A stretch of 43,769 nt of DNA, the filler included, from Jimgerdemannia flammicorona (taxonomy: Eukaryota): assembly GCA_003990765.1 (NCBI GenBank). It is 2 parts of 2 records of this genome, joined end to end, with 100 filler letters (N's around TTAATTAATTAA, not from the genome) between each part and the next. Parts side by side here need not be neighbours in the genome. Positions count along the whole stretch, not along the records: positions 1 to 21,839 come from RBNJ01001382.1; 1 more part is not named here. One strand, given 5' to 3'. How positions within the stretch are numbered: position 1 is the first letter of the stretch; each line of letters starts with the position of its first letter. Shown here in pieces: positions 698 through 41,332 of this stretch. The translations under genes and the position numbers were made by a program. The notes beneath the pieces are model-generated. The model made no database searches. It was not told the DNA's origin and worked only from the letters and a program-made list of their open reading frames with translations.

Positions 698-900
698 TAC
701 ATGAGCTATCCCCCTTGGCAAAATCTGAGAAGTCTCCATAAGATAGGAGGAGCTACTATCCTAGTAGATGTGATTGTTACAAGCACCACCAACTATGATA
801 TTCTCATTAGCAACCAATGGCTTCACAAGGCCAAGACCATCATTGACCTCAATACCCAGAAGATGCAGATCAACTATAGAGGAAGAAAGATATGAGTCTC
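698..900 (+). pseudogene. Aspartic protease, C-terminal half (element A)
   Basis: ATILVDVIVTSTTNYDILISNQWL; near-identical to element B protease ATISVDVIVTNATNYDILISNQWL. Confidence 0.85.
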
Positions 901-1259
901 TATCAATGTCTACAAAGGAGTTCTACCAGACATGGAGGAAGGAGATGAAGAGGACATAGAGGTCTTCATGTACTCAGTGAATAAGAACAAGAACAAGAAC
1001 AAGACACCCAAGCTCACAGATGAGCAGTGGTATAATAAGATTATTGATGGCTATACCCCTCAAGAAAGATGCCCCCATGGTACTAGAATGTACTGCTCTG
1101 AATACCTAAATGACTGCTGGTCCCATATCAGTGAAGTCAGGAAAATCCACTATCAGAAATATGAGCAAGGAGCCACCAAAGCAAAAAAAGAAAGCCAAAG
1201 AAGATGACCAGCCCCCAGAGCTTCAAGCTGACAGTGATGATGAGGAGGAACAAGAACTA

Positions 1260-1680
1260 AATATTACCCTCAAGGTCAAGAAGTTTTACCCTGAAGCCAA
1301 GATCCTAGAATACAAAACTGAAGGAGCCATAGGAATAGACCTTGCTAGCATTCAAGATACTACCCTTAAACCACAGACCACCACCCTACTTGGCACTGGA
1401 ATTAGAGTCAAGTTACCAGAAAACTATGCTGGAATTATCAAGACCAGGAGCAGTCTGGCCAAAAGCAAAATCTCAGTTGAAGGAGGAGTAATTGACTCTG
1501 ATTACACTGGTGAGATCTTCCTCATAGTCAGGAATTACAACCCTACCACCCTATTCAAAGTCAAGAAGTATGACAGGATTGGCCAGATGCTGATCTACGA
1601 AATCAAGAAACCTAAGATCACTGAAGCCATTGAACTCATCAAGACCAAGAGAGGAGAATAAGACTTTGGATCTACTGGAA
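1260..1680 (+). pseudogene. dut: Trimeric-type dUTPase domain (element A)
   Basis: Motifs GIDL, TRSSLA, GGVIDSDYTGEI, DRIGQML and a decayed KRG..FGSTG. Confidence 0.95.
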
Positions 1681-1849
1681 GAGGAGCCTATGCTGCCATC
1701 AAGATTACTGAACTTAAGCACAAGAAAGACAAGGACTAGAACAAGCATACATATACTATCAGAGAAAACTTTCCCCTGGAAGAACAACCTCTCAAGATCC
1801 TATACCAAAACAAAGGAGTACTTGCTATAGACTTCAAGGATATCTATAA

Positions 1850-2760
1850 TCAAGAACCCAAGTACTACCACAAAGTTGACACTGGTGATACTAAGCCCAT
1901 CTACCAGAAATCCAGACCCATACCACCTATCTACAGAGAATGGCTGCAAGCAGAACTCAAGGAAATGGAAGAAGCCAGAATCATCAAGCAAGCTATCAGT
2001 TCCTGGGCTTCACCCATTGTCCTTGCCCCAAAGAAAGGAAGCAAGTCTGGAGAGTTTACACCAAGACTCTGCATTGACTACAGGAAGCTCAATGCCATCA
2101 CCAAGAAGGATAGGCAGTCCTTGCCAAATATTCAAGAAATCCTTACCACCCTTAGATGCAAAACCAAATACTACACCACCCTAGATCTGTTCTTGGGCTT
2201 CCATCAGTTTGGTCTCACTCAAGATACCAGTGAGAAATCAGCCTTCATCATACCTGATGCCACCTATATCTACCTATGAATGCTATTTGAAATGTACAAT
2301 GTCCCAGCAAGTTTTTAGCAAATGATGAATAGAGTTTTCAGCAATGAGATTAGAAAATAGCTCTTTATCTATGTTGATAATGTGATCATCTTCAGCAACA
2401 CTGTACAGGAATATGTCAATCATATATAACTAGCCCTCAAGAAGCTCAAGGAGCATGGCCTTTATATCAAGCCCAAGAAATGCAAGTTTGCAGCTCAAGA
2501 AATCACCTATCTAGGACACCTTATCAACCAGATTGGAATCCATACAGACTCTATGAAGATTGAGGCTGTTGTAGCCTACCTAAGACCCAGAACAACTACA
2601 GAAGTCCATGCCTTCCTTGGACTGACCAGCTACTACAGAAGATTCATCAAAGGATACTCCAACATTACAGCACCTATCCATGAGCTACTGAAGAAGAAAA
2701 CCAAATTTGAATGGACCAAGAAACCTTCAATGAACTCAAGATTATATTGACTCAAGTACC
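1850..2760 (+). pseudogene. Gypsy reverse transcriptase (element A)
   Basis: SSWASPIVLAPKK, RLCIDYRKLN, LDLFLGFHQ, YVDNVII (decayed YVDD), FLGLTSYYRRFI; several stops. Confidence 0.95.
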
Positions 2761-3360
2761 TATTCTCAGAAGACCAGATTGGAACCTAGAATTCATCCTG
2801 CAGACAGATGCAAGTGCTATCTCTTCATTAGTATTGAAATGCAGCCAAATTTGGCTACTGCTACTGCAAAAAAAAATTTAAAAAATTTTTTAACTTAATA
2901 TTTGATATAATTTTTTTTTTTTTTTTTTTTTTTAGTAAAATAATTTTTTATGATTTCTTTTTATTTTTATAAAATTTTAAATACAGTTGTTTTTTGCAGC
3001 TAAATTTGGCTGCAATACCACCTAAGAGATAGAACTTGGAGCAGTCCTAGCTCAGAAGAAAGATGGATATGCATATATCATCTCCTATACAAGCCAAGGT
3101 ACCCATGAAGTAGAACAGAACTATGAGTTATGCAAGTTTGAATGCTTAGCAGTAGTTTGGGCAGTAGACAAGTTCCACTACTATCTAGCTGGGAAATACT
3201 TCACTATTCAAACAGATCATTCTGCTCTTGTCTGGCTATTCTACACTCTAAACTTCAAAGGAATATATGTCAGATGGATCTACAGACTGCAAGAGTATGA
3301 CTATACTATCAAGCACCACTCAGGAAGAACCAATACCAATGCTGATGCACTCTCAAGGAA
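2761..3360 (+). pseudogene. RNase H (element A), split by a MITE
   Basis: QTDASAI/[insert]/ELGAVLAQ, ECLAVVWAV, QTDHSAL, NADALSR. Confidence 0.9.
2821..3028. mobile_element. 208-bp MITE with ~35-bp imperfect TIRs and an AT target duplication
   Basis: AT|CTCTT..GTATTG..GCAGCCAAATTTGGCT ... AGCTAAATTTGGCTGCAATAC..AAGAG|AT. Removing the insert plus one AT restores in-frame DASAIELGAV. Confidence 0.85.
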
Positions 3361-3399
3361 ACCCCCAAATACCTCCATCAAGACTATTCAACATAAATT

Positions 3400-4599
3400 A
3401 AGGAGCTATACTATGGATTAATCAGCTATCTTAGGCAGTAGAAGATGCCCAACCATCTCAAACCCTGGACAATCACCATCATCAACCAGACTTGGAAACA
3501 GTTTAAACTAGATAACAGTATACTCAGAAAAGGAGGAAAGCTAGTAATACCAGAATACAAGAAATATCAAGTAATGAAGGAAGTATACAAGCAAGGACAC
3601 CTAGGAGGAACCAACATATATGACAAGACAAAAAGAACTATATGGTGGCCCAAGATAGAAGAAGATCTGCACCAATTTGTCAAAGGGTGTGACAAGTGTC
3701 AAAAACAGAAATAAGATCAGCAAGACCAGGCATTTGAGTCATCAAGAATTGAGCCTATCTCCTTCCACTACAACACAATGGATATCATTGGGCCACTACT
3801 AGTAACACTATTAGGAAACCACTATATCATAGTTATTGTAGACCTCTTTACCAAATAGATAGAAGTAGGAGTATTAAAAGAAGCCAATGCCCTCTCTATA
3901 GCTGACTTCCTGTACTGAGAAATCATCTGCCACTACAAGACACTGAAGCAAATTACAACAGACCATGGCATAGAATTTATCAATAGATTCCATGAGATAA
4001 TGTATCAGAAATACAAGATCTAGCATATCAAGACCACCACATACCACCCTCAAGAAAATAGACAGACAGAGAGAATCAACAAGACCCTCAAGAACATTCT
4101 GGCAAAGATCTCAGAGATATATGAGAATTGGGATAATTATCTCCTAATTACCCTCTCTGTCCTATGAGACATATAGTCACAGAGCACACACTTTACCCTA
4201 AGGAAACTGCTCTTTGGAGAAGAAGATTCTGATAGAACCTCAGCCACAAATCTAGACCTAACTTGGAGATGAGTTGATACAGAAATCCAGAGACTATACC
4301 AAATCACAAAGAAGGCTGAGGATTACATCATCAAGTCACAAGTGCTGATAAGGAAGAATGTAGAAAAGAATCACAAGATCCTAGAACCCATCCAAATCAG
4401 AGAAAAGGTCCCACTGTATCAAAATATGGTAGAAGCCTCATGGTTGCAAAAACTGGAGCCCAAATGGAAAGGACCCTTCTACATACAAGATATCAAGAGA
4501 ACTACCTTCTGGCTTAGAAAAATCTCAGAGACCATACTGCTTACTATGGTACATAGGAACAGACTCAAGAAGTACCACAAACCTATACAAGAGAAGTAA
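3400..4599 (+). pseudogene. Integrase with zinc finger, DDE core and GPY/F domain; no chromodomain (element A)
   Basis: GHLGG..WWPKI..CDKCQ, MDIIGPL, TDHGIEF, YHPQ..ER.NKTLK, KLEPKWKGPF, VHRNRLKKY. Confidence 0.93.
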
Positions 4600-4944
4600 A
4601 ACATAATGACTGCCTGCAAGGTTCTAGTCCATGAATCATAACAGCATGTCCTATGACCAGTAGGCTATCTATCTGGACCATTCTCTAAGGGATATGGCAC
4701 CAGCAACTACTCATCCATGAGACTTTCAAAGCCAGAGGAGTTCAAACCATCAACTGATTAATCAAGATCAGAATTAGGCCCTTGCTCTATATGAAGGGAG
4801 CGACCCTTCACTATCATGCCAAAATACAAAGAGAAGATGCCAGCTCATAAGCACCACTTTTCAACCCCTTGCCAGAGGTTATGGGATCAGCAAATTTTTC
4901 AGAACTGGACTAATGAATAAGGATGCTTGAAAAGATCCTTATTC

Positions 4945-4954
4945 AGAAGGAAGA
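4945..4954 (+). promoter_or_regulatory. Polypurine tract of element A
   Basis: ATTCAGAAGGAAGA|TATAATA matches element B ATTCAGGAGGAAGA|TGTGACA. Confidence 0.8.
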
Positions 4955-5109
4955 TATAATAATGACTCCAGAATGATGACATCAGCACAGAAGACAGCCT
5001 TTTCTTACAAGCCACCAGATCAGAGTACAAGAAGATCATATGGCATATGAGATGAGCAATGATGACCAACTGTGAGTTATTGTGACCACAGTATGGGTAT
5101 CTTGAGGAA

Positions 5110-5117
5110 TATAAAAG
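5110..5117 (+). promoter_or_regulatory. Putative TATA box 1, upstream of the LTR-encoded ORF
   Basis: TATAAAAG 87 bp before ATG 5197; conserved in the solo LTR (8420-8427, minus). Confidence 0.6.
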
Positions 5118-5196
5118 AAGGATCAAGAAACCATAGTAGCAGCAACCAACAAGACCCACCAATCCCAAAATAGCTCAAAAACTTACCACAAACAAA

Positions 5197-6030
5197 ATGC
5201 CTGCTGCTCACCAAACCTCAAGGTCAAGGAATCACCAAGGTATCTCAGTCAAAGAGAGAATGTTCCAAGACATCAGAAGAGCTATGAGGATCTGCTCAAG
5301 AAGGACTCCTAGTATCAACCTGGGTACTAGTGACTCTTATCATTATATTCTCTACTGCTGTGAAATGGAACCAAGGATTATTATTGCTACCAAATATCTC
5401 CAAATGTAGCAGGAGTATGAAATAGGAAACCTTCTCTGCCGGGAGTTCCCACAGGCCAGCACTCAAGAGCTACAAGATACTACTCCCATAGATATATGCA
5501 AAACAAGGATAGCTAAGAAGATCTATCAGATCTTCAGGCATGCACTATAGTCAATTCCCAACTTAGAGTATGTTAGAGTCTCAGATTTCAGAGATCTGTC
5601 ATCCTACCATATTAATGTACTAGAAGCCAGAGTGGCCACAGAAGTCCAGTCCACTATCACCCTCAATAGTGATAAAGTAGAAGACTTCTGGTATTCCATT
5701 CTTCAGGACAACCCAGATCAATCCCTGTAAGAATTGATCTCAGTATTCCAAGATCCAAGCATCCAGGTTAGACCTCTCCAAGATCCCACATTTGTTCTCT
5801 ATTTTGTGAAAGAGAATCTCATAGACTGGAGAGCTCCAGATCTCCTTGTTCCTGCCACTGCTGCTGCTGAACATGATGACATCATTGGTGATGATGTTAT
5901 TTCATATAACATTGAAGTATGTGAAACATGCAACCTATGCGATAATAATGAATTTGCAGACCTCATCTCCTTTAAAGACATCCTGACCTCTGATAATGAA
6001 GCCCTTATGGTCTTAAACATTCTGCTCTAA
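5197..6030 (+). pseudogene. LTR-encoded accessory protein of unknown function (~277 codons, three in-frame stops)
   Basis: Single frame from MPAAHQ to LNILL*; includes YEIGNLLC...RIAKKIYQIFRH...VRVSDFRDLS. Stops are TAG/TAA, explicable by C>T or G>A. ATG and stop are conserved in the solo LTR. Confidence 0.8.
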
Positions 6031-6254
6031 GTCCCTTGGTTATATTAAATAATACCAGCATCAGTATTTTGATATAATACTGAATAATGCCAGCATCAGC
6101 ATTTTGATGTAATACTAAATTATACCAGTATCCTGAATCTGTACAACTATCAGTACCAACCCTAGAACTTAGTAGTTTTTCCTGTCCTGGCATTTTATTT
6201 TAGTTATTGGAATTTATATTTAGCTTTATATCTTACAACCATTGAATTATATTT

Positions 6255-6289
6255 TATATAAATACTCCTCTTATTTCCTCTGAAATAAA
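6255..6289 (+). promoter_or_regulatory. Putative TATA box 2 (TATATAAATA 6255-6264) and poly(A) signal (AATAAA 6284-6289) of LTR A
   Basis: The same TATA, ~20 bp, AATAAA arrangement occurs in the solo LTR (7256-7263 and 7231-7236) and the element B LTR (22901-22910 and 22877-22882). Confidence 0.65.
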
Positions 6290-6497
6290 GTCAATTCTTT
6301 TCAGTGTAATATACACACTTCTTTGCAAGCAATCTAAGAGATAACAAGATAGTTTAAAGATAAGAAGTTTGAGGACTATAAGATCTTGGAAAGGTACTCA
6401 AATAAGAACTTACTTATAACAAACTTGAGTTAGTCTAAGAGATACACCTTGAAGAGAATCTGGTATATTTGAAGAACTCAGCAACTACTACATGATA

Positions 6498-6969
6498 ATA
6501 AGAATAACAGGAGAATAAATAGATACTATACAGAACAGACTGATATTAAGTGACTAGAAGTATTTAGTATTCTTTAATAAAACAAAAATTAATTATTTTA
6601 GATTCTATATATAATATATATCTTTTTCTATTATTTTCAAATTTTAGTCAATCAATATTATATAATTTGTATTAAATGATATTTTATATCTTTGATTCAA
6701 TTTTATAGTATCTTAGATATTTAAGATAATAACAATATACTGTTTGAGTATTTGTAGTCAGTTTAAAGTAGTTTTGTGGTATTTTCAATATAGAAAAAGT
6801 CATGTAACATCAATTGACTACAAAATTCAAAGATGATAGAAAAAGGTAGATATCATATATAAAATTCAAAATAATTAATTTTTGTTTTATTAGAGGATAT
6901 ATTATACTTCTAGTTACCTAATATTAGTCTGTTCTGTACAGAATCTATTTATTCTTCTGTTATTCTTAT
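6498..6969. mobile_element. Foldback/MITE-like element with ~165-bp terminal inverted repeats
   Basis: ATAAGAATAACAGGAGAATAAATAGAT...GTCAATCAATATTA (6498-~6665) is the reverse complement of ~6800-6969; non-coding AT-rich loop. Confidence 0.75.
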
Positions 6970-7021
6970 ATATATTTAATACTATAATAATTTATATAAT
7001 TTCAAACTATAACTCATCTAT

Positions 7022-8596
7022 TGTTATATAGTGGATACTGAGTTCTTCAAATATATCAGATTCTCTTCAAGATGTATCTCTTAGACTAACTACAAGTTTG
7101 TTATAAGCAAGTTCTTATTAGAGTGCCTTCTCAAGATCTTATAGTTCTCAAACTTCTTATCTTTAAACTGTCTTATTATCTCTTAGATTACTTGTATGGA
7201 ATTAAGTATAAGTAAACTGAGAGAACTGACTTTATTTTAAAGAAAATGAGAGATATATTTATACAAAATATAATTCAATAGTTGCTAATATATAAAGCTA
7301 AATATAAATTCTAATAACAAAATAAAATACTGGAATATAGAAACTTCAGTTATAAGTATAAATTCAAGTATCTATATAAATGGTCATACAAGTTCAGAAT
7401 ATCAGTAGATTTTAGTGATATAAGAAAAGAATGCTAGAAGATTTAGATATTTAGATAAATAGTTATACAAAGAACTTAGAGCAGAATATTCAGAACTCTA
7501 GGAGCTTTATCTTCATTACTATCATCAAGGTTAGAGGTTGGGAACAGGATGTCTTTGAAGGAAATGAGGTCAGTAAATATTTCATTCATCTCACATATGT
7601 CACATATTTTGCATACTTTACATATATTACTAATTAGTGAGATGACATCATCACTGGTGATATCATTATGTTCAGTAATGGCAGAGAAGAGAGCAAGGAG
7701 ATCTGGGGCTCTCTAATCTATGACATTCTCTTTTATAAAATAAGGAACAAATGTGGGGTCTTGGAGAGATCTAATATGGATACTGGAGCCTTAGAATGCT
7801 AAGATCAATTCTTGTAGAAATTGATCTAGATTGTTCTAGAAGATGGGATTTCAGAACTCTTCTACCTTATCACTATTGAGGATGATGATAGATTGGGCTT
7901 CTGTGGTTACTATGATCTCCAGTATAGTGAGCTGATAGTTTCTTGAAGTCTGAGACTCTAGTATACTCCAAGTTGGGGATTGACTATAGTATATATCTAA
8001 AGATCTGATAAATCTTCTTGGCTGTTCTTATTTCATATATATTTATGAGGGTAGCATCTTGTATCTCTTAAAGACTGGCCGGAGAGAATTCTCAGCAGAG
8101 GAGATTTCTAATTTCATATTTCTACTACATCCAGAGACATTCAGTAGTGATGGTGATCCTTGTTTCCATTTTATAGTGATAGAGAATAAAGTAATAAGGA
8201 TCACCAGTACTCAGATTAAGACTAGGAGTCCTTCTGATATGAGTCTTCATGACTCTTCTAATGTCTTGGAATATTTTTTCTTAGACTAAGGGGTCTTGGT
8301 GGTTCCTGAACCTTGAGATTTGGTGGGCAGCAGGCATTTTATTTATAGTGAGTCTTTGAACTATTTTAGAGTTTTGTGAGTCTTGTTTGAGTTACTGCTG
8401 CTGTAGTTCCTTAGTCCTTCTTTTATATTCCTTGAGATATCTATCTTGTAGTTATGATGACTCATAGTTAGTCATTATTACTCATCTTATAGTCTGGATA
8501 AGTCATACTGTATAATTTTCTTGTACTCTGATCTGGTGGCTTATAAGGAAAAGCTGTCTTCTATAATAATATTACCATTCTGAGGTCACCATTATA
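7022..8596 (-). mobile_element. Solo LTR of family A carrying the accessory gene
   Basis: Colinear reverse-complement homologue of 4955-6497; flanked by CTAT (7018-7021) and TTAT (8597-8600), a 4-bp TSD with one C>T. Confidence 0.88.
7476..8337 (-). pseudogene. LTR-encoded accessory protein, second copy
   Basis: MPAAHQISRFRNHQ...YEIRNLLC...RTAKKIYQIFRY...TRVSDFKKLS; multiple stops and at least one frameshift. Confidence 0.8.
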
Positions 8597-8599
8597 TTA

Positions 8600-9383: not shown

Positions 9384-9387
<4 letters not shown>
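8600..9387 (-). mobile_element. Heavily decayed gypsy relic, RNase H part (continues at 15342)
   Basis: Minus strand at ~9230-9385 shows decayed W..AF..LK..PIL..P..F..TDAS..AIGAIL.Q; extremely AT-rich. Confidence 0.6.
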
Positions 9388-9465
<78 letters not shown>

Positions 9466-22696: not shown

Positions 22697-23162
22697 TGTA
22701 ACATAGCGAATGCTTACTCTTGAAAGTACATCAGATTTCTGTATCTTGAATACTTGATCTTCTCTGACTCCTTGGAGTCCTTGGGGTGCAGGGGTGGATG
22801 AGTTCAAAGTGTATCTGCTTGTGGGCTTACTAGTCCCTTTACTATTTCTTTGCTTTTGAACTATTTCGATCTAAGGTTTATTCACTCTAAGATACTAGGT
22901 TATTTATATAAGTTTTGCTAACTATAAGGTGGCTAAGTAATGGCTCATTTCACAAGTGTTGAATCTTTTAACATCTGCTAAGATTTCGCTAATTGCGAAG
23001 ATTCTAACATCTCCTAAATCTTTGCAAATGTTAAAGTTTCCGCACTTTGCAGAATATGGCTGCTATTTATGAGGCTAAGCTATATTGGGAATCAGATTCA
23101 GGTACTGCAATCAAATATCTAATTCCCTTGTTTCATGTTACTAATTCAGATCAGCTGTCACA
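22697..23162 (-). repeat. 3' LTR of element B (466 bp)
   Basis: Direct repeat of 27104-27569, same length. Confidence 0.97.
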
Positions 23163-23309
23163 TCTTCCTCCTGAATAGGTAATTTGTCTTAGAAGTATTC
23201 TATTTACTTAAATTCCCAGGCTTCTACAATTTGTATTTCCTTATACTATATAATTTGTGTCATTATGTCCTTCCAATATTATTTCTTAATATATCCAAAG
23301 TCTCCTAGG

Positions 23310-24300
23310 GTTACTCCTCAGCTTAGGTATGCAATGACATACTCTTTTTTGTCTTCCTTTTGAGCTAGAACCACTCCTAGTCCTTGTGCACTTGCATCTG
23401 TCTAAAGGATAAACTCTTGGGTCCAATTGGGTATCTGAGGATGGGTGCCTGGGTCAGTCTGACCTTGAGTTCAACAAATACTTTTTGTTGTCTGCCAGTC
23501 TAGTTGAATTTAGTGTCCTTTTTATTGAGTTCATAGATTGGACCGTAATATTAGAGAATCCTCTGATAAATCTGCGATAGTAGGAGGTAAGTCTCATGAA
23601 GGCTTGGGCTTCTATAACAGTGGTGGGCCTTGGGTATGCTGCTACTGCTTGTATCTTGAGGGGGTCCATGTGCGTTCCATCTCAATTAATAACATAGTCA
23701 AGGTAGGAGATCTCAATTTCTGCAAATTTGCATTTCTTGGGCTTGATATACAGATCATGCTTTCTCAGTCTTTCCATTATCTGCCATATGTGCTGCAGGT
23801 GTTCCTCAGGTATCTTGCTGTAGATGATTACATCATCGATATAGACTATTATCCATCTTCCCATATTATAGTGGAAGATTTTGTTCATTATTTGCTAAAA
23901 GCTTGCTGGTGCATTGCATATCTCGAACAGCATTCGTAGGTAGATGTAGGTTCCGTCTGGGGTGATGAAGGCTGACTTTTCACTTGCCATCTCTATGAGT
24001 CCAATTTGGTGGAATCCTGAGTATAAGTCCAAGGTGCTCTAGTACTGTGCTTCATCTCCCAGTATTATAAGGATGTCACTGATGAGGGGCAGTGATTGGC
24101 AATCCTTCTTAGTAACTACATTGAGCTTTCTGTAGTCAACACAGAGTCTTGGGGCAAATTCTCTAGGTTTGCTTCCTTTTTTTAGGGCTAGTACAACTGG
24201 TGAAGACTAGGGGCTGCTGGCTTCTTTGATAATACCAGCTTCTTTCATCTGCTTGATTTCTTCTCTGAGCCATTCTTGGTAGGCTGGTGGGATAGATCTT
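23310..24300 (-). pseudogene. RT and N-terminal RNase H of element B
   Basis: RLCVDYRKLN, LDLYSGFHQ, VYIDDVII, LTSYYRRFI, TDASAQGLGVVLAQ; homology breaks after YVIAYLS. Confidence 0.93.
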
Positions 24301-24519
24301 GCCTTCTGGTAAATTGGTTCAGTGTCTTCAGTATCTATCTCATTATAGTAGTATGGGGTTTTTCCCTTGATATCTTTGAAATCCATGACAAGGACATCCT
24401 CAAATTTGTGGAGTATTTTCTTGAGTTCCTCCTTGAGTAGAAATTCATTTCCAATGGTATAACTGTGCTTGTTTGTAATTTCCTCCTTCTCATGCTCCAG
24501 TTCAGTGATCTTGGTACTA

Positions 24520-24950
24520 GTAAATACTCCTTTTCCTATAGATTCAAATCCTTTCTTTCCTCTTTTCATTTCCTCCAAATTCTTGACTTCTATGATCCTT
24601 AGTTGTAGGATTGGAAAGATCAACATTTGTGCCAATTTGTCCTTCTTCTTGACTGGGAATAGGATTGTAGAATTGTGATTCCTAGCAATGAGCAGGATTT
24701 CTCCAGTATAGTCAGAATCAATGACTCCTCCTTCAATCATAATTTTGCTTCTGGCCAGGCTGCTTCTTGTCTTGAGGATCCCAACATGATCCTTTGGGAT
24801 AGTCATCTCCAGTCCAGTTGCAAGTAGGGTGGTTGTTTGGGGTTCTAGTATAGCTTCTTTTACTGTGGTGATGTCCATTCCAGCTGCATTTTCTGACTTA
24901 TATTCTGGCAAGACTGCATCAGGGTGGGTCCTTCGGATCTTGACCTTAAT
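24520..24950 (-). pseudogene. dut: dUTPase domain (element B)
   Basis: AAGMDI, TRSSLA, GGVIDSDYTGEI, DKLAQML, KRGKKGFESIG. Confidence 0.95.
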
Positions 24951-25334
24951 TTCTTCTTCATCATTACTATCCTCCAGGAGGGCTGGTGGTTCATCATCTT
25001 CCTTCTTCTTCTCTTCTCTAACCTGTTTTTTGAGAGCTTTCTATCTTCTTTCTTGGTGGATTTTCTTGATTCTGATGGTGCACTGGTAGCAATCATTGAT
25101 ATACTCTATATAGTACATCTTGATCCCATGAGAACAGACTCCTTGTAGTATATAGCCTTCTGTGATCTTCTTATACCATTCTGCTTCACTCATCCATCCA
25201 ACTTTCTTTTTCAGAGTAGTCACCATATAAGCTTCCTCTTGCTCACTTTCTTCTTCCTCCATGTCAGGCAAGACTTCTTTGTTGACATTAATGGGAATTT
25301 GTATCTTCTGTCCCCAGTAGGTAATTTGCATCTT

Positions 25335-25660
25335 TTAGACATTGAGATCGATTACTACCCTGGCTTTGTAAAGCCATTGATTGCTGATGAGGATGTCATA
25401 GTTGGTGGCATTGGTTACGATTACATCTACTGAGATGGTTGCTCCTCTAATCTTGATGGGGACTTCTTGGATCTCTCCCAGAGGGGTGGCTCTTATGCCA
25501 TCTGCTGTGACAAAAACCAACTTGATTGCTTCTTCAACTTCCCAGCCTAGACAGTCTGCTGCTTTCTTACTGAGGAGACATCCTCCTGCTCCAGTATCAA
25601 TGATGGCTTCAAAGACTCTATCTTCGTTTTGGTATATTGCATTGGTAAAGATTTTGCAAT
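25335..25660 (-). pseudogene. Aspartic protease (element B)
   Basis: AIIDTGAGGCLLS...YDILIS. Confidence 0.92.
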
Positions 25661-25759
25661 TGTCTTCACTTTCTTCTCCTGAGTTCTCTTGAACATTATT
25701 GGCCTCAGTTATCTTCCATCCTTGCTCCTTGGTTGTTTTGGCAAGTCTGAATCTCATTT

Positions 25760-26995
25760 GTTATCTGAATGTTGGGATTTCTGTAAGTGACCAAAGGTTG
25801 CATTGACCTTTTGTTGGCTAAGGTCCTTGAAGATATCGTACTTGAAAGTCTTGGTCTTGCAAAGTTTCTTTTCTTTTTTTCCTTCACTGGCTGGAGTAGT
25901 TCCTCAAATAATATCTTGAACTGCTTGCTCCAGCTCCATATCTTGGTCCATCTCTTCAGTCTGGCTTTCAGTAGCCATTTTCATCTGCTTTTCTACTGGG
26001 TTCTTCTTGGGTCTTCCTGGTGGTCTCTTGTAGGGTTCCTTGCAAACATCCTTCTTAGTAGTCGGAGCAGGATAGGCCTCCTATTCTTCTTCATCAGAAT
26101 CTCCAATTTCCTCAAAGGTAATTATATTGGCCTGCTCCTTGTTTCATGTAGCATTGCTTGGTTGAGCCTTGTGCTTAGTTTTGCTCATGCATTCATAGGA
26201 GTAGTGGCCTTCTTCTCCACAGGTATAGCAGGTGCCTTTCTTCTTGTCCAAGGTGACAGCAAACTTCTGAACTGGGCAGTGGTTTCTTCCTTAGATTTCT
26301 TTTACCATATCTCTTAGATGAGAGGTCATTTCAGCAAACCTCTTAGCAAGTTCCTCCATAGGGTCACTGTTCTTTTGCTGCTTTGTAGTTTTTGGCTGAG
26401 GTGTGTTTCAATTGATTATTGTAGTAGGGATCACACTAGTTGCCTTGGGTGTTTCGATTCTGACTCCTGTAACTCTTTCTATTGTATGGTCTTGTGGATG
26501 TCTGGCTGTCCAATATCACTGAGCATAGGTGACCTTCTGTGATAGATCCAAGACTATTGGTGATGAACAAATAGCCATGGCTATCTCTGGGTGAACTCCT
26601 TTCATGAAGGTTGCTTTGGCTACTTGATCTCAGATAGCAGTAGCATAATCTGCAAGGATTATCTGATATCAAATTCTGGTATAGAATGTGTTTGAATCCT
26701 CACTCATTCCTTGGTATATTGTATTGAACTGATCCTTCAGAGCTTGCTTGATCTCATCTGTATAATATATATTTTGGAGCCAGGTCTTCTGTGCTGTCAG
26801 TATAGCATTGGTGTTATTTCCTGCATAAGTTGTGGCTGTAAATACTGCTCTGGCAGGACCTTGTAGGCTGAAGGGCATGAGGGCTACTTGCTGCACTGCT
26901 GTCAGGGTCCTTACAGCAGTATACTGCTCGAAATTATCAATGAAGTTAATGATTGATTCATCTGAGATATACCTGTAAAATACTGGTGGTCTCAT
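25760..26995 (-). pseudogene. Gag (element B)
   Basis: MRPPVF..FIDNFE capsid-like start; CYTCGEEGHYSYEC knuckle at ~26189-26230. Confidence 0.85.
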
Positions 26996-27103
26996 ATCTA
27001 TTTTGTCTGGGTATTGTATAGTTGCTCAGGTAGTGTCAGTTATTTGTTGTTCAGCTTGAAAGTGAGGGATTCATCTTGAATCACTAGCCAATGGGTACTA
27101 AGT

Positions 27104-27569
27104 TGTAACATAGCAGATGCTTACTCTTGAAAGTACATCAGATTTCTGTATCTTGAATACTTGATCTTCTCTGACTCCTCAGAGTCCTTGAGGTGCAGGG
27201 GTGGATGAGTTTGAAGTGTATCTGCCTGTAGGCTTACTAGTCCCTTTGCTATCTCTTTGCTTTTGAACTATTTCGATCTGAGGTTTATTCACTCTAAGAT
27301 ACTGGGTTATTTATACAAGTTTTGCTAACTATAAGGTGGCTAAGTAATGGCTCATTTTGCAAGTATTGAATCTTTTAACATCTACTAAGATTTTGCTAAT
27401 TGCAAAGATTCTAACATCTCCTAAATCTTTGCAAACATTAAAGTTTCTGCACTTTGTGGAATATGGCTGCTATTTATGAAACTAAGCTATATTGGGAATC
27501 AGATTCAGGTACCATGATCAAATGTCTAATTCCTCTGTTTCATGTTACTAATTCAGATCAGCCATTACA
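27104..27569 (-). repeat. 5' LTR of element B (466 bp)
   Basis: Direct repeat of 22697-23162. Confidence 0.97.
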
Positions 27570-29611
27570 CTATATTAAAACTATATATAAACTATTTCAA
27601 AAGACATTTAACTAACATCTTAATTCTTATTATATTAGATTTATTAAAACCTTTAATATTATTATTAAAATAATATTTGGTCAAAAAGATTACCTAATAA
27701 TTTATTTTTCTCAGAATCTTAAGTCAGCTAAAATAATATATGATTTATAAAAAAAGTTATTAGTTATAGTTATAGCTCTTAAAAAATAGTATTATTTCTT
27801 ATTTGATATTTTTTTATAGTATTTAAATTACTATACTCTTAAATATATTTAGTTAATACTAATCTATAAATAAGTATAATAAATATAGATCATTATATTT
27901 TTAATATAGAGATTAAATACATTCTAGATATGATTAACTAAATAATAAATAAATTTTTAAGATATGGAAAACAAACTTATTTATTTTATTAAAGTTATTA
28001 ATAATTTTATTTAACTTATTAAAGATAATTATCAGAAGAATAACCTATTATCAAATTTTCTTTAATACTATTAAAATCTAAACTCTGAAGTATCTAAAGT
28101 TATAAAAAAAATAATTAAGAGATTTATATATTGAGATAAACTTATTTATAGAGTTTATAAATAAGTAGTCATATCTAGAAATAATAATTCCAGACTTAAA
28201 ATTATTTATATAAAAATTCTATAATATTTCAGATATAGAAAAATTTTAGTTTAATAAAATCTATAATCTTATTTCTCAAAAATACTATTAGTAAAATATT
28301 TAAAGATATTAAAATCTTTATAGTCTTCTTTAATATATATATTAAAAATTCTAAAATAATAATAAGCTATTAGCTAGTTTTTATAACTTCTTTAAATTTA
28401 ATCTATAACTAAAAATTATATTATAATAGACTTTATTATATAACTTTTTAAAATTAGAAATAATTAGAATATTATTATTATATTTATAGACCATCTTAGC
28501 AAATAAATCTACTTTATACTAATAAAAATTACTATAATAGTTTTTGAAACTACTGAAATATTTTTTAACTTTATATTTAGATTATACAAATAATATATTA
28601 AGTACTTTAGTTTAATTATATAAAGTTTATAAGTAACTTTTAAAGTTATTTTTTTATTTTTTATATATAAAGTTAAAATTATTCTATAATTTATCTATTA
28701 CTCTAAATATTAATAAAACTCTGAAGCAGATACTTAGTATCTTTAGTAGATCTTAATAAAAAAAAAAAACTCACTTTTTTTAAAATTATAAATAATATTT
28801 AAAACTTTAAGTACTGTTGAAATATTGAGATAATAATTTGATATATTAATATATAATTATACTATTCTATTAGTTTTATATTATTCATTAGTAATATATA
28901 AAATATATAATATATAACTTTAATAAAATTAACCTTTCTTTTACAATAAAGATTATGAGCCCTACTAGTACTAAGTGACTATAGTAAAAAAAAAAAATTC
29001 CTTTTTAATATATATTATTCTAAAAATATCAAGTAATCATCAGTCTAGCAATATAAGTAATGTAATAGATATACTAATTATAAATATTTTAGTAATAACA
29101 GGAGTAGTTCTTATTATAACTACTGATATAATTATAATAATAAAAATATCACTTTAGTTATTAGTATAAATATAGATCCTGATATTGAGAAATATTCTAT
29201 ATATTATTTGAGTATTCTATATATCAAATCTTATAAAAGAATATAGCTTAGCAAAGTATATAAAGCTATAAGTACAAATTCAAGATTATGATACTGTAAA
29301 TAATTACTAAGTATTATATAAGATTATATTCATATAGTCAAATTTATAAAGAAAGCTCATAATGTATTCAATAATAACTTATAAGATATATGAGACTCTA
29401 TATAATAATTATATATAAGTATTTATATCAAATTAATTTTACCTAAAATCTCAGCTATTCAATTTGTAAAATATGTCTAAAGAGAGTATCTACAAATATA
29501 CCAATTATATTAATGATCTGGTAAATTAAGTGAATTTCCTCAATATATCTACAGATTATATTAATAATGAAGATAAGATTATAGTACTCATAAGAGGACT
29601 TTTAAATATAT

Positions 29612-30974
29612 TGTGACATGTATAACTGCTAATACTGGAATAAGGAGTAATGATAACAGATCTTATAATATTGGATGATAACTTCAACCTTATAATGTAA
29701 TAATTAGATAATACTATCTAATGACTTACTTAACTCATCAGATGATCTGATCAAAAGGAGTAATAATAATTTAAGCTAAAATGAAGACCACATTATTTAA
29801 AGAATCTAGACCTAGTATGTATATTAAGAAGAATTAGAATATATAAGAATACAATATCTCCTTTCCACCTCTCTAACCAGACCTTCCATCATAATACTTC
29901 TTTACCAAGAATAAAGAGTCTTGTCTTCAAAGTCATCAAAATGGCTATCTGGTACCTAGACACCACTAAGTATCTGAACTTCTATACTGAAGATCTTGGA
30001 TATTTCATTAACTACTACTATATAATAACTTAGTAGTGCAAGAATACTACTGACTGAATAAACCTCTGACATGACTATGAAATTGTATACTACCTCTGCA
30101 ATAAACCCCAAGAAGATGATTAAGAAAATCTTATTACCAAACTATTAACCACCAACTGGCTGATCATGAGAGTTTTTCATATCTACCAAATCTTCTATTA
30201 TATATTATAGGCTATAGCTCACTTACATATAAGGAGTTACTACTAGAAATATAGTCTACCTCACTACTGAAGAAGTCAATTGGAAAGAAGTTGAAGTTGT
30301 TAATTATATCAGGAGCAACTGTATTACTGTAGAAAGTCAACAAACTGAAAGGCTTCTATATAACCTCTTTCTGATACAACTATCAAGGCTATCTAATAAT
30401 TCTTATGGAAATCTTTAAAGGACTACCCATTACCATTGAAGCACCTACAAGAGCTACTACAACTACTCTCTACCCTGTTAGTTATATGTCATATCACATT
30501 ATATAAAAACTGAACTAAGAAGTCCCAAAAACTTCTGTTCAAGAAGAAAAAGAACACTAAGACTATCCAAACTGAGGAATCCCAAGAAAAAAATAAAGAA
30601 TCTACCAGTCTTCAGTCTGCCTTTAAGCTATATAAGAGTTAGAAAACATCATTAAAGATAACTGGCCACTATTCTATCTCCTCACCTCTTGGATAGTACT
30701 TTCTCTCTTTAAAGAGTGATATGATGAAGTCACAATCCAATAAGGTGATTTTCTTATTACATACTGGTAAAGGATATAATGCCTTTTAAGATAGAGATCA
30801 ATATTCTTTATTAGTAATACAGAATAAAGGTATTCCAGCCTTATCTAATTTAGTTAATATCACTCTCTACATAAGTATATTATAGTTTTGCCAAATATAG
30901 AATAGCTCTCCTATTATCTAAACATTCTTTACCAGCAGTGCAGATCAAGAGAATTTCAACCTTACCCTATCACA
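29612..30974 (+). mobile_element. Orphan LTR-like unit D (1363 bp) with two TATA boxes and an internal accessory gene
   Basis: Bounded by TGTGACA...TATCACA; TATATAAG at 29840-29847 and 30629-30636; ORF remnant between them. Confidence 0.65.
29890..30560 (+). pseudogene. Divergent homologue of the LTR-encoded accessory protein
   Basis: RIKSLVFKVIKMAI..LNFYTEDLGYFINY..YEIVYYLC..RVFHIYQIF..CITVESQQTERLLYNLF..LMEIFKGLPITI is colinear with 5197-6030; stops and frameshifts. Confidence 0.7.
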
Positions 30975-31203
30975 TATACACACACCTGAATCGCCACTAT
31001 ACCCAGAGAACCATCTCAATTAGGAAATCGACATACAAATCGCTTGCAGATATCCAGCTTAACTATTATACCACTAAATATCAAGGACTTTAGGAATTAT
31101 AAAATATTTTATTGTTTTTGACAAAGTAACTGGGGGCTCAAGCCAAACTACATCAACTTCCCAACCTTGTAATTTGTCTCTATTGAGCCAGACACATTAC
31201 ATT

Positions 31204-31221
31204 TGGGGGCTCAACTGGGAA
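31204..31221 (+). promoter_or_regulatory. Primer-binding site, probably tRNA-Pro
   Basis: TGGGGGCTCAACTGGGAA 2 nt after the LTR end; resembles the tRNA-Pro PBS TGGGGGCTCGTCCGGGAT (14/18). Confidence 0.7.
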
Positions 31222-31756
31222 GATTTCAAAATTGACATAACTTTTCAGCTCACAAGAACCCACAGTCAAACTGAATGCATTTGATATAACACCAATCTCT
31301 GCTACTATAGGAGAACCAGTTATCACCAGCATCTGGACAGGAAGAGAAGTAATTACTTCAAGACTTGTCAATTACCCAGTATCAGAAGGATCTCAATTAG
31401 AACCAGAAGACAGTATAGCCCGAAATCCCCAACCAGATCAACCAGACAATATAGGCAGTCCTGTTAGAGATTTTGGAGAACTTGCACAAGAACTAGAAGA
31501 CCTTATCACATAAACCTGAGACCTAACAGCCAGACATCCCAGATCAGTTCCTCCAATCTCATCAATAGAACCTTTACCACAACCCTGTGAATTGGAAACA
31601 GCTCCTATAAGAATACCTAGGCTTATTCCACTTCATTGAAGGTCCAGAACACTATCCTCAAGATACCCAAGCACCCATATCTCCAGTGACAGTTCAGAAA
31701 GTGAATCAGAATCAGAATCCAAACCTGAACCAGAATTAGAAGAAAGTGATGATGAA

Positions 31757-33220
31757 ATGGCCACCTCATTGCCAATCTTTACAGGATATTCAGAGGAAGA
31801 CCCCAGAGAGTTCCTTGATAGAATTGAAGGAATTGCAGTCTTGAGGAATCTCTCAGATGAAAGAAAAATCGCCATCTACAAGGCTTAGCTCAGAGAACCA
31901 GCCAGAGGAATTTTCCATTGAATAGCAAATAATCCAGATTCAGAACTAGCAAGACAGATATAAGCAGCAATGTCTTATGAGCTAGAATATGAGGCCATGG
32001 TCCACTGGCTCATTGAAAAGTATGCAGGAAACAAAACCCACTACAAGGCTCAAGAATCTATCATGGGGATGAAGATAAATCTTGGAGAATCACCCAGAGC
32101 CTTCTTTACAAGAATCCAGAAGAGAATGCATGCTGCCAGGTTCAATACCACCAACCAGGACATAATAGGTCCAATGACCTTTATGAATGGAATTCCCCCA
32201 AACATTGCCCAGTATGTCCACACCCTAGGCATCAGAAGGTCTGAAGAACAAGTAGATGTAGCCCAAGGATTCTTTGATATTAGACAAGGAACTACCTGGA
32301 GTGATCATGATAGGAAAGAAGAGAAAGGAGACATCCTGGTCAAAGCCCCACAAGGACTCCTTCAAGGACAAGAAAGATCTGAAGAAAGAAGGCCAGCTAA
32401 GGAAGGAAAGAAGGACAGAAGTGAAATCCAAGACCTCAGCTCCAAGTTAGACCAATTGGTTGGACAGATTGAAAAACTCACTACATGCGAAAATCAGAGC
32501 TACCAAGACAACAAAGGATACCCACCACAAAGAAACCAAGATTATCCACCAAGAGATAACTGGAATTACCAGCAGAAAGAAAGAAGGTACCCTGTCCGAG
32601 ACAGAGCCCAAGTCCAATGTTTTCACTGTGGACAATTTGGACACTATGCCACTGAATGTGATAACAAAAGAAGTGACCAAAGAGACTCAGAACCACCAAA
32701 CTGAAGGAATGACACCCAGTACAAGAAGACTGAAGCCCATCCTGTTGAAGATTTTGAGGAAGCAAGCAATAGTGAAGACTACAGTAACCTAGACTTGTAC
32801 CCTACCAAGGTTACCACCCAAAAGACAGTCTACCCAGCAGAAAAGAGGAAGAGATCTGTAGGAAGGCCATCCAGGAACATCAGCAGAAGAATCATCCAAG
32901 AAGAAGATAAAGAACATGAGGAGGAACAAGTAGAAACACCTTCCTGAACCCCCTCACCTTTTGGTCCCAAGATAAATAAGTTGTCACCAGAAGATGAAGA
33001 AATGGAACAAGAAGAATGGGAACCTGCTGCTCCAAAGCCCAAGAAGAAGTACACTCTGAAGATCATGCCTAGAGACATTTACCATGAAGCCTGGCAGAAG
33101 ATTCAAGAGGCCAAGATGGAAGTCCCCCTCCTGCAGTTCCTGCAACTGATACTAGCTGGAGTCCAAAAAAAATTGCTGAGAACCACTAGGTCTAGCACTG
33201 GCCAAGTCCCAATCCCATAG
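31757..33220 (+). pseudogene. Gag (element C)
   Basis: LPIFTGYSEEDPREFLDRIE; GESPRAFFTRI; FMNGIPP; CFHCGQFGHYATEC at 32618-32659. Confidence 0.9.
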
Positions 33221-33269
33221 CAAGAACCAGTTCCCATCCCTGTTCAGGCAGCTGAAAGACATATCAGCA

Positions 33270-33630
33270 CCTACCTACATGGAGATATTGGAGAACAAAA
33301 GGCAAAGATCCTCATAGACACAGGAGCAGCTGTCTGCGTCATTGCCAAACGGTTCCTGGACACCCTTCAATGGCCCATTGATGGACCATCCAATCTCAGC
33401 ATCATAGTAGCAGATGGAGCCCGAACTCAACCCCTTGGAGAAGTACAAAATATCACCATCTCCCTTGGACACATTCAGTTCTCCATCCCCAAAGCTGTTA
33501 TCACTGAAGCTATCACCTATGATATGATTCTTGGCACCAACTGGATGAAGGAAATGAATGCAGTTGTTGATATTGGCCAATAGGTACTCAAGTTTGATTA
33601 CAGAGACAAGAAATATAAAGTCAGGGTGAC
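33270..33630 (+). pseudogene. Aspartic protease (element C)
   Basis: ILIDTGAAVCVI...YDMILGTNWM. Confidence 0.92.
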
Positions 33631-34934
33631 CAGCTATAAGCAATCAAAGAAAAAGAAGAAGGTCACTATTCAGGAAGAATATGCCAGCAGTGAAGAATCT
33701 ACCACAGAAGAAGAGGAAGAATCCAAAGATGGATATGATCCCAGACTTAACCCCCAAATTAACCTGGTGGATGATAGACCAGAAGACAATGTGTGGGCTA
33801 AAAACACCATCCCCATCACCATCAGAGCTATTGCAGAAGAAGCCAAAGGATGCCCTATCTGTCTCAAGAGACATAAGTGTCCTGAGCACTCCTCCAAGAT
33901 CATGGGTACAAGGAAATCACCTGGTACAGCCTGCCCAGAATGCAGAAGGAAGAAGAAGAAATGCAGACATATTTCAGAAATACCTGCAACTGAAGCAGCA
34001 GAAGTACAAGCAATTTGGGGTCAAGAATCATCAGAGGAAGAAGAAACTTCTGATCAAGAAGTCCCTGAACAAGAAGTACCTGAAGAAGAAGAAGTCCCCG
34101 AACTCATTCCTTGGGATGATCCTCATTGGATACCACCTGAAGACAATGACCCTTGGAACACAGGAGAAGGACCCAGTCCAATCACCATTACTCCCAAGAA
34201 AGAAACTCACCAAGAGAAGGCTTTTTGGCTTAGAAGATATCTACACCAAATGGTCTTCCACTCTCCCTGAGGCTACTGCTATCAGTATCATTTATTGGAT
34301 CAACAAGAAAGACAGAGACCTGAGAGATTAGAACCCCCAACTATACTTGTACAGTCAACCACTTTTCAAGAAGTTATCACAAGGTTAAAAAGTCGATTTA
34401 GAGGACAAGGCTTCTGCACCCAGACAGAAATATATCCCTTGTCTACTCTTCCACCTACTTATGACCAAGATGGGTACCAATTTCCAAGGCAACAAGAGAT
34501 CAACAGCCAAGAACACTATTTTTGAGCAATGGGATATTGCAACTATGGAAGACACCCAGACTGCCGAGATTGCAGGCATCAGAAGATCCATCTTAGTCAT
34601 GATGTTGTAGTCCATACTTTAAAGAGAGGAGACAATAGAGGCTAGATCCGAAAAGGCTGAACCAAGAAGCCAGAAAGAAGAATCCTCAAGATCTATGATC
34701 TGGGAGAAGATATCCTAGCTCTCATCAGACATGCAATCTGCCAAGGATGGGCAGAAGATACCACCAACTTCATGGAAGCCCTAGACCCTATAGGAAGAAG
34801 GGGAATCAACTATCTCTGAGATCCCTCTACTAGAGCCAGATGGCCACACCTCAACCTTAGAGCTTGGAGGCTCTCTACTAGTGGAGCTTCAGCCTTAGGA
34901 AGATCTGAACTCAGTAAGGATATTGCTCAGTACA

Positions 34935-35195
34935 TATGTCCTGCTGTACCCCAAGGCCAAACCCCCAACCAAAGCCCACTCAGAGGATGTAGGATATGAT
35001 CTTCACAGCCTGGAGGATGAATCTATCAAACCTGGAAAAACCTTCATGATTAGAATATGCAGAATGGCACTGAATCATTAGAGGACAGAAGATTGCCCAA
35101 GCAGTCTTCATGAAAGTCAAAACCCCATAGTTACAAGAAGTCTCTGAACTAACTGAAGGAACAAGACAAGCCAAGAGATTTGGAAGTTCAGATAG
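34935..35195 (+). pseudogene. dut: Internally deleted dUTPase (element C)
   Basis: AKPPTKAHSEDVGYDL..IKPG, a gap, then GQKIAQAVF..R..KRFGSSD; motifs 2-3 are missing. Confidence 0.85.
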
Positions 35196-35739
35196 GAAGG
35201 AAGTACACCTCCTTCAAGTCAACCACCTCAAGAGAAATGTTCCCCAGCAAGTATACTGGCAACCAGTCAGACTGTACAAGAATCTTATTCTGGAACCTGG
35301 AGAACAAACTACCTTTGAAATCTTTGCACCACCCAACCCCAGAAATCTTTTCTTTGAACCCAAGGAAGATATCCCACACCTGGACATAGAGGGACACACA
35401 TTCTCTGACAAGATGAATCCAGTACACTCCTGAGCAACCAACCAAAGTTGGGAGACCATCATCTTGCTGAAAGGATCCATCATAGGATATCTGGTGCCTT
35501 TTCTCAACTAAATTCATAGGGAAGTTTATGAACTAAACCTATGGGAAATGGCAAAAGGTCCCAGAGGAAAGGAAAGGCCCCTCTGTGACCCAGGAGACAG
35601 TGAAGTCTTCCACCAACATTGGAGAAGAATTGAAACCTCAACAACAACAACAACTAGTAGAACTTCTCAACAAATATCAAGATATCTTCACTACTGAATA
35701 GAAACCTGCCATATAATCCATCATATCACATAGCACAAA

Positions 35740-38088: not shown

Positions 38089-38584
38089 CAACTGCCTCCA
38101 AACTCTTATCCTCAGCTTCCTCTAAGTTCTACCAGTTCCCCTGCCTCAGTTCTGGAAACCCAATGGAACATATCTTCAGAAAATCTAAGTTCATCAAGAG
38201 AACCTCACTTTGGCCAAGAGACTACTCCAGGTCCACCAGTTGCAGGCATACTATATAATTGGAGAACAATTGCAGAATCTTTCTCTCCCAGACCTAGCCT
38301 ATGTCTGTAATACCACTGGCCTGAATAGAAGGAATACCACTGCTGCAGACAGACTATACACAATATATAAATGAAATCCTTCTGCCTTAATCTAGGTCCA
38401 GTTCTCTCTGAATGACCTCCAAAAGATGACACTACCCACCTACCTCAGCATTATTCACCAAGTAGAGATCCTATTTCCCAAGGAAGAAGAAGAGCTCCTG
38501 GAATGGAGTGACCATAGCTCAGATGATGATGATGGAACAAGTATAGATGCAGAAGCTGCTTATGTCTATTGGGATGATGACTGA
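38072..38584 (+). pseudogene. Post-integrase accessory ORF (~170 codons), same family as the LTR-encoded ORFs
   Basis: One frame with substitution-type stops: QAYYIIGEQL..CNTTGLNRRNTTAADRLYTIYK.NPSAL..VQFSLNDLQKMT, then an acidic tail ending WDDD*. Confidence 0.65.
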
Positions 38585-38659
38585 AGAATTATTAAAAAAA
38601 AAAAAAAAACAAATATCTAAAGAATAGTCTGGGACAGACTACCCTTCAGTGAAGGTTGA

Positions 38660-41166: not shown

Positions 41167-41332
41167 CACCCCAGCGGGCGCGGGCGCCATCGTTGACCTG
41201 ACCTGTCCGCTCAAATCTGGCGACTCCACCGCTGGACGATCCTTTGCCACCCCAGCGGGCGTGGGCGCCATCGCTGACCTGACCCGTCTGCTCGAATCCG
41301 GCGACTCCACGCGCTGCACGATCCTTTGCCAC
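41167..41332 (+). repeat. 81-bp-period GC-rich duplication
   Basis: CACCCCAGCGGGCGYGGGCGCCATCGYTGACCTGACC.. starts at 41167 and 41248. Confidence 0.88.

Follow-up and report, generated by a model that had tools for sequence, protein, structure and literature searches.

In the long terminal repeat (LTR) of a betaretrovirus, the mouse mammary tumour virus (MMTV), the U3 region contains an open reading frame (ORF), sag, known as the 'LTR ORF'. In foamy viruses, a second, internal promoter drives Tas, which acts on the LTR promoter, and in the human immunodeficiency virus (HIV) the nef gene overlaps U3. As a rule, LTRs are treated as non-coding control regions in which annotation pipelines skip genes, and extra ORFs are catalogued in internal positions only, at least in the accessible parts of PMC7264820. 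Plant and rotifer LTR retrotransposons can carry additional ORFs (aORFs), in either orientation, upstream of gag or in the interval from pol to the 3' LTR (available passages of PMC7264820 and PMC5408684), and fungal gypsy elements place a dUTPase between protease and reverse transcriptase (RT) (available passages of PMC2864245). Here we describe an ORF inside the 3' LTR of a decayed Ty3/gypsy retrotransposon, element A, in a stretch of 43,769 nucleotides from Jimgerdemannia flammicorona (hereafter the window; two joined parts of assembly GCA_003990765.1, of which positions 1 to 21,839 come from RBNJ01001382.1). In our reading, to which we assign a probability of about 0.72, positions 4955-6497 are a true 3' LTR whose long U3 holds the complete gene of an orphan family of ~270-340-amino-acid (aa) proteins, laid out as a cassette.

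We take the LTR ORF to be a real, conserved, LTR-borne gene because it has intact homologues, a codon-position signature in its own frame, and a conserved TATA box and leader. The LTR extends 242 nt upstream and 467 nt downstream of the ORF. An earlier note on this DNA had proposed that the LTR encodes a protein of ~277 aa in a single open frame from ATG to TAA. The homologues and the codon-position signature bear out the gene, though it is dead here; the uninterrupted frame does not hold, as three in-frame stops are present (5407-5409, 5548-5550 and 5728-5730), all of the transition type and all at alignment columns with a sense residue in every covering homologue. When translated with X at these stops, the ORF matched five proteins at E <= 0.01 among 281 candidates, with a best E of 6e-104; the closest homologue is 78% identical by phmmer and 74% by BLASTP, and identities range down to 31%. 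An exhaustive representative search yielded four credible matches and added members that are 40% and 31% identical across residues 17-266, and a profile built from eight members, run against 5.8 billion clusters, picked out 9 proteins from 4360 candidates. The contigs that encode the family members are all short (600-4848 bases) and come from JGI/IMG or ENA, and the intact forms have 271, 291 and 342 aa. Judged by this divergence, the members at 31-40% identity show that the gene is old; they are silent on which form of the LTR came first. One further hit, the repetitive 948-aa protein P0010 (E 8.7e-06 over 23 residues), is a low-complexity chance match and was left out of all alignments.

At the DNA level, scanning metagenomes with the alignment of the close family brought up no match, and scanning them with P0009 brought up a single contig, L001; related DNA was present neither in the viral contigs nor in the prokaryote genome contigs that we scanned. 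L001 comprises 1535 bases with a GC content of 0.47 and contains an intact ORF of 291 codons, a length reached in 0 of 1000 shuffles (maximum 194). In a codon alignment of this ORF with that of the window, 98 of 273 residues are identical (36%), and nucleotide identity at codon positions 1, 2 and 3 is 0.487, 0.626 and 0.348. As the original alignment was made on proteins, it was repeated in two shifted frames; these gave scores of 49 and 56 vs 359 and ran into 12-27 stops, and the best-conserved site remained the true second codon position. L001 also has a 33-nt direct repeat (170-202 and 1481-1513; 82% identical, 1311 bases apart) near both contig ends, the first copy of which sits where the start of the element A LTR would align; it is either an LTR-internal repeat or an assembly effect.

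The arrangement around the ORF suggests how it might be expressed. The LTR would constitute a self-contained cassette of a TATA box (5110), a short leader, the ORF, a 3' untranslated region (UTR) of ~250 nt and a module of a TATA box and an AATAAA signal. The earlier note had located the polypurine tract (PPT), the TATA boxes at 5110 and 6255, the ATG, the TAA and the AATAAA at 6284, and all of these positions are correct. From the ORF stop to the downstream TATA box there are ~225 nt, and the AATAAA follows that TATA box after 29 nt. The TATA box at 6255 would start the genomic RNA and the AATAAA at 6284 would polyadenylate the ORF transcript: at this spacing, the signal would lie at or just before the start of the genomic RNA and thus be used only by transcripts started upstream, as general retroelement biology has it. 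An ORF mRNA of ~1.2 kb would then arise from either LTR, and from solo LTRs as well. The leader is better conserved between element A and L001 than the coding sequence, with 19 of 20 positions identical in a local alignment of 5177-5196 with L001 355-374, a score that 0 of 300 shuffles reached.

On these grounds, we consider it an even call that the LTR gene has a promoter of its own. The most durable alternative, which we nevertheless think improbable, accepts the gene but has it read, as with the U3-overlapping accessory genes of retroviruses, either from the 3' end of the genomic RNA or from a subgenomic RNA made by splicing, the upstream TATA box being incidental. It draws on the established fact that the U3 of the 3' LTR is present in every genomic transcript, on the AG that directly precedes the 16-nt leader in L001 and in the inverted copy of the LTR described below, which is a possible splice acceptor, and on the frequency of TATA-like strings in AT-rich DNA. 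Against it, TATAAAAG is kept 80-87 nt from the ATG in spite of proteins that are only 36% identical.

The protein family offers some hints as to function. Its N-terminus is basic (residues 1-45 of the 271-aa form have 10 K+R vs 2 D+E), its conserved core is predicted to be helical and then to form a short hairpin, according to a low-confidence model, and its tail is acidic (12-26 D+E vs 1-4 K+R); all 8 of the sequences examined share two short hydrophobic motifs in this tail. By resemblance, such a combination of basic head, folded core and acidic tail with motifs would fit a regulatory or adaptor protein, for example a transactivator. That the protein acts in trans for the element, for example by activating the LTR or by countering silencing, is a conjecture about which we are doubtful, and we are more hesitant still about the extended proposal that every 5', 3' and solo LTR may be an autonomous cassette supplying a transactivator or anti-silencing factor family-wide. 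No fused or longer forms were found among 7860 candidates, which is weak evidence. An origin from gag was also considered, and rejected: a profile comparison with the gag of a third element in the window gave a probability of 0.09%.

Far less likely is a passenger ORF, in which case the LTR once took up a host gene that plays no role for the element. LTR retrotransposons with transduced host sequences are known (PMC7264820, available text), and the protein family has no recognisable domain. The same available text, however, gives transduced ORFs a copy number of one or a few, whereas here the contigs of four public sequencing runs (from four studies, three of them labelled soil metagenome and the fourth bearing a coded organism label; aligned on 4400-7100 at at least 80% likeness) cover the first 570 nt of the ORF as heavily as the LTR ends. 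Moreover, members down to 31% identity remain open, and no homologue of host type or of greater length was found in the searches.

In our view, 4955-6497 is an authentic 3' LTR, with a U3 of unusual length, and belongs to a decayed Ty3/gypsy element that is truncated at its 5' end and carries a dUTPase. This rests largely on a comparison with element C, a relative on the minus strand of the window. Alignment of the two LTRs of element C with each other sets their limits, as do a PPT before the 3' and a primer-binding site (PBS) after the 5' LTR. In a targeted alignment, the PPT and the first ~50 LTR bases of element C align to the PPT of element A and to 4955 onward, while its TATA/AATAAA pair and last ~90 bases align to 6255-6497 with the same final base. 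Homology to both LTRs of element C covers the first ~50 bp and the last ~90-250 bp of the element A LTR; an alignment of the two whole LTRs with permissive gaps was not informative (score 147 vs a shuffle maximum of 138). The termini read TA...TA in element A, TG...CA in element C and CA at the end of the inverted copy, and those of element A therefore look transition-mutated.

The end of the LTR also appears in the contigs of the four runs. These contigs (2003, 387, 79 and 243 per run, each only ~150-270 bases long) cover 4400-6492 continuously and stop at 6493; after 6492, the summed depth falls from 1412.8 to 2.63 in X1, from 90 to 1.03 in X2, from 43.6 to 0.1 in X3 and from 30 to 0.11 in X4. 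Depth is higher in the LTR than in the internal part, to which we give no weight, as summed contig depth is not copy number. Cover is low at 5765-6219, and the tail of the protein is its variable part as well. A single X2 contig runs past 6495 into sequence that matches the PBS region of element C; an end matching that of the element A LTR therefore also exists in the 5' position, although this short contig shows an LTR-like end there and not the ORF behind it. Element A thus comes with a PPT, with mutated TG...CA termini and, from one contig, with a PBS-like continuation; direct LTRs at both ends are seen in the related element C and not in element A itself. The proposal that the entire 1.54 kb is LTR is supported by the PPT, the end homology to element C and the collapse of contig depth at 6493.

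Less probable still than a passenger ORF is an LTR confined to the final 250-460 bp; the ORF would then be a third, internal one, situated between pol and the LTR and duplicated together with its flank. The LTR of element C measures only 460 bp, the second copy of the element A LTR belongs to an inverted segmental duplication and for that reason sets no limits, and extra ORFs between pol and the 3' LTR are the common type (PMC7264820, available text). Yet the start of the element C LTR, as known from its two LTRs, aligns at 4955, right after the PPT of element A; the inverted copy ends exactly at the matching point, 8596; and neither a PPT nor an LTR start was seen in the sequence near 6040-6250. 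Finally, a chance open frame without any gene can be dismissed: the strand is A-rich and T-poor (AT skew +0.14), which lowers the frequency of stop codons, and the window copy itself has three stops, but homologues at E values down to 1e-104, intact distant members, the in-frame codon signature and the shuffled controls of the L001 ORF all speak against it.

The only other copy of the 1.54-kb LTR in the window is the inverted one at 7022-8596. The earlier note had taken it for a solo LTR flanked by a target-site duplication; it is instead the other arm of a palindrome that shares flanking sequence with the first. By self-BLAST, 4954-8597 forms one palindrome of 3.6 kb (71.5% identity over 3818 columns), in which the flanks 6498-6663 and 6802-6969 are 83% identical over 168 columns. 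As the palindrome includes flank beyond the LTR, the second copy is not an independent integration. The palindrome looks like an inverted segmental duplication that was followed by loss of the interior of the second element. Homology between the copies had been said to start at 4955 and to stop at 6497: the start is right, but beyond 6497 homology resumes after 52 extra bases on the inverted side, and the limit at 6497 holds by the other evidence given above. Both TATA boxes, the ATG and the stop are conserved in the second copy, as the note had stated and the alignment confirms. Its ORF remnant (7476-8337) is more decayed, with many more stops; the first two stops are common to both copies, and an 8-bp deletion shifts the frame. 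Around the inverted copy, a target-site duplication would consist of just 4 bp, which read ATAA/ATAG on the element strand, and the DNA there is AT-rich; the 5' flank of element A is missing. On the element strand, the four bases after the 3' LTR are ATAG in element C (22692-22695), in the third element (40247-40250) and after the inverted LTR copy (7018-7021), and ATAA in element A; the shared ATAG could reflect an integration-site preference or chance in AT-rich DNA.

A number of results weigh against our reading of the locus. An element of full length with two ORF-bearing LTRs was seen neither in the window nor in the contigs of ~150-270 bases, and the second LTR copy, being a duplicate of the first, gives no independent support. 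Element C, the only relative in the window with both LTRs, has no ORF in them. The earlier note had named intact elements with a short 5' LTR lacking the ORF as evidence to the contrary; element C does have such 460-bp LTRs, but it is internally deleted and not intact. In L001, the limits of an LTR could not be found, the upstream homology to the internal end of element A is marginal, with a score that was reached in 9 of 300 shuffles, and the tail bears no similarity to R/U5 of element A (98 of 300 shuffles reach the score). P0006, one of the nine family members, has an unrelated C-terminus as after a frameshift, so that decayed copies of the gene exist elsewhere too. Among public sequencing runs that contain sampled words of the stretch, there was no RNA run; four were of DNA type, with shares of 0.04-0.15. 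Lastly, the fold of the protein is not recognised. No Pfam family matched P0001 at E <= 0.01 or any of four intact homologues at E <= 1, a profile search of PDB sequences gave 0 matches at E <= 1, and AlphaFold2 on the eight-sequence alignment reached a mean pLDDT of 39.5 and a pTM of 0.23. In the ESM Atlas, the intact homologue P0003 obtained a best feature score of 0.83, which shuffled proteins often reached; the Atlas's own model for it has a pLDDT of 0.35, and all TM scores are <= 0.41. With the dUTPase ORF of element C, the Atlas recovered the dUTPase family (0.95; 209 of 256 features).

Both window copies of the LTR gene are dead, having decayed through C-to-T and G-to-A changes that have nearly eliminated CpG. 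Between the two LTR copies, there are 287 transitions vs 77 transversions, and 71 of the 188 C/T differences are followed by A in both. The observed/expected ratio of CpG is 0.01-0.11 in the LTR elements (0.01-0.04 for the LTR copies) vs 0.92 in 41000-43769, a segment with a GC content of 0.48. An excess of C-to-T and G-to-A changes in a preferred dinucleotide context, as left by repeat-induced point mutation (RIP) or methylation-driven decay, is thus present, and the process may have been CpG deamination or a RIP-like one. In two further stretches (27600-30900 and 15500-21500), GC is 0.21-0.27 (down to 0.14 per kb), CpG 0.00-0.01, TpG/CpA below 1 and TpA above 1, values that suggest RIP-like decay on top of the loss of CpG.

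The coordinates of all features are compiled in Table 1. With protease, dUTPase, RT, RNase H and integrase in this order, element A has the pol arrangement of Ty3/gypsy elements (Metaviridae). Its internal frames are broken by many stops and frame changes, neither gag nor a 5' LTR lies within the window, and no chromodomain was detected by Pfam in its read-through translations. Bases 1-700 are tandem repeats unrelated to the element; at 27-642, directly upstream of the truncation point, there are tandem arrays with periods of 15, 24, 30, 23 and 33/99 bp and a positive GC skew.

Table 1. Coordinates of element A, its LTR and LTR gene, the palindrome and element C in the window.
Feature	Position	Strand	Basis and remarks
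Element A internal region	703..4943	+	Degenerate, 5'-truncated Ty3/gypsy; Pfam on read-through translations and homology to element C
Protease remnant of element A	from ~703	+	Homology to element C
dUTPase of element A	~1293-1679	+	Pfam, E 4.2e-27
RT of element A	~2028-2519	+	Pfam RVT_1, E 1e-21
RNase H of element A	~3026-3298	+	Pfam RT_RNaseH, E 9.5e-25
Integrase zinc and core domains of element A	~3547-4050	+	Integrase_H2C2, 5.2e-13; rve, 1.9e-05 (below cut-off)
PPT	4944..4954	+	Sequence; abuts the LTR; one transition apart from the tract before the element C 3' LTR
3' LTR of element A, 1543 bp	4955..6497	+	End homology to element C LTRs, contig depth, PPT
Upstream TATA box TATAAAAG, putative LTR-gene promoter	5110..5117	+	87 nt before ATG; identical in inverted copy; 80 nt before ATG in L001
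16-nt leader adjoining ATG	5181..5196	+	Identical in L001
LTR-borne ORF, 277 codons and TAA, pseudogene	5197..6030	+	ATG 5197-5199; TAA 6028-6030; homologues; codon-position signature
35-bp tandem repeat, 2.6 copies, in putative 3' UTR of the gene	6042..6132	+	Tandem Repeats Finder; 22-column gap in inverted copy
Downstream TATA box TATATAAA (6255) and AATAAA (6284-6289)	6255..6289	+	Same pair, with like spacing, in element C LTR; kept in inverted copy
LTR flank, inner part of palindrome arm	6498..6663	.	Repeated inverted at 6802-6969
Unpaired palindrome centre, 138 bp	6664..6801	.	Between aligned flanks
Inverted flank (6802-6969) and 52 extra bases (6970-7021)	6802..7021	.	Abuts inverted LTR
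Inverted second LTR copy, 1575 bp	7022..8596	-	73.6% over 1608 columns vs 4955-6497
Element C, comparator	22696..27562	-	67% over 2161 columns to element A; gag, protease, dUTPase

The homology between elements A and C spans 703 to 2817 of element A. The LTRs of element C (22696-23155 and 27103-27562) are 92.6% identical, and a possible 4-bp target duplication, ATAG, accompanies the element. It lacks the part from RT to integrase, the homology ending at 2817 of element A, 230 bases before its own PPT, and it is probably non-autonomous. Element C may be a doubly deleted, non-autonomous derivative, or the lineage of element A may have gained the ORF.

Elsewhere in the window, a third Ty3/gypsy element of ~9.3 kb (30964-40246), unrelated in sequence to element A, has long open gag, RT and integrase stretches and terminal repeats of ~240 bp that are 84% identical; an inverted LTR fragment at 21574-21834 is related to these (74-75%). 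On the minus strand, ~9786-15000 is a GC-rich (0.54) region of non-LTR-type reverse transcriptase with a C-over-G skew of -0.35 to -0.51; its CpG observed/expected ratio is 0.39 vs 0.01-0.11 in the surrounding LTR elements, and it appears less decayed. A run of 77 T, 97% pure, occupies 9386-9462.

A gene wholly inside an LTR has two copies in each element, persists wherever a solo LTR does and may carry its own promoter. Together, these properties would make the LTR gene a direct means of studying self-regulation in a retrotransposon family, or its defence against silencing by the host; if the cassette layout is true, a non-infectious Ty3/gypsy element would possess a circuit of the complex-retrovirus type, and its solo LTRs would not be inert. 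Such LTR genes have probably been missed, or masked as repeats, in public data, given that only the nine proteins described above emerged from the clusters searched, all on short, metagenome-type contigs.

Among known systems, sag of MMTV is the closest in layout. In both cases, a U3 of more than 1 kb contains a complete ORF of ~300 codons, with the genomic promoter and poly(A) module downstream of it; here, 5197-6030 lies between 4955 and the module at 6255/6284. As the ORF is inside U3, it is duplicated together with the LTR, in MMTV and here. The differences are that the present element is a Ty3/gypsy element without env, that a TATA box and a conserved leader stand just before the ORF, and that the proteins bear no similarity. 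Pfam includes a model for Sag, and neither Pfam (0 families) nor the PDB sequences (0 at E <= 1) gave any sign of a relationship to Sag or to another retroviral accessory protein; for want of such similarity, we do not count the LTR protein among the retroviral accessory families. Foamy viruses and HIV, with nef, likewise have an accessory gene at the 3' end that reaches into or lies in U3, but their genes start upstream of the LTR, whereas the present ORF is wholly inside it, and no homology was found. A two-promoter circuit of the foamy type is suggested here by motifs, the TATA boxes at 5110 and 6255.

The aORFs of LTR retrotransposons share with the LTR gene that they are extra ORFs, conserved family-wide and without known function, in elements with gag and pol (PMC7264820, available text). 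They are, however, internal, whereas the ATG here is 242 nt downstream of the LTR start; a word search of the accessible text of PMC7264820 gave no wording for an ORF within an LTR. Chromovirus-type Ty3/gypsy elements of fungi with a dUTPase, such as PosPlaTy3-5 of Postia placenta, have this domain at the same place as elements A and C (PMC2864245, available passages), which agrees with, but does not prove, the fungal assignment in the earlier note; those passages describe no ORF in the LTR, and a figure legend among them lists an 'add. ORF'. By title, the matches listed for LTR ORFs and retrotransposons concern non-LTR elements, MMTV and unrelated surveys, and among them, mostly titles and beginnings of abstracts, with subscription journals and supplements outside, there is no retrotransposon gene inside an LTR. 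What is new here is thus an accessory gene of an orphan family inside the U3 of an LTR retrotransposon, a layout otherwise known from a few retroviruses.

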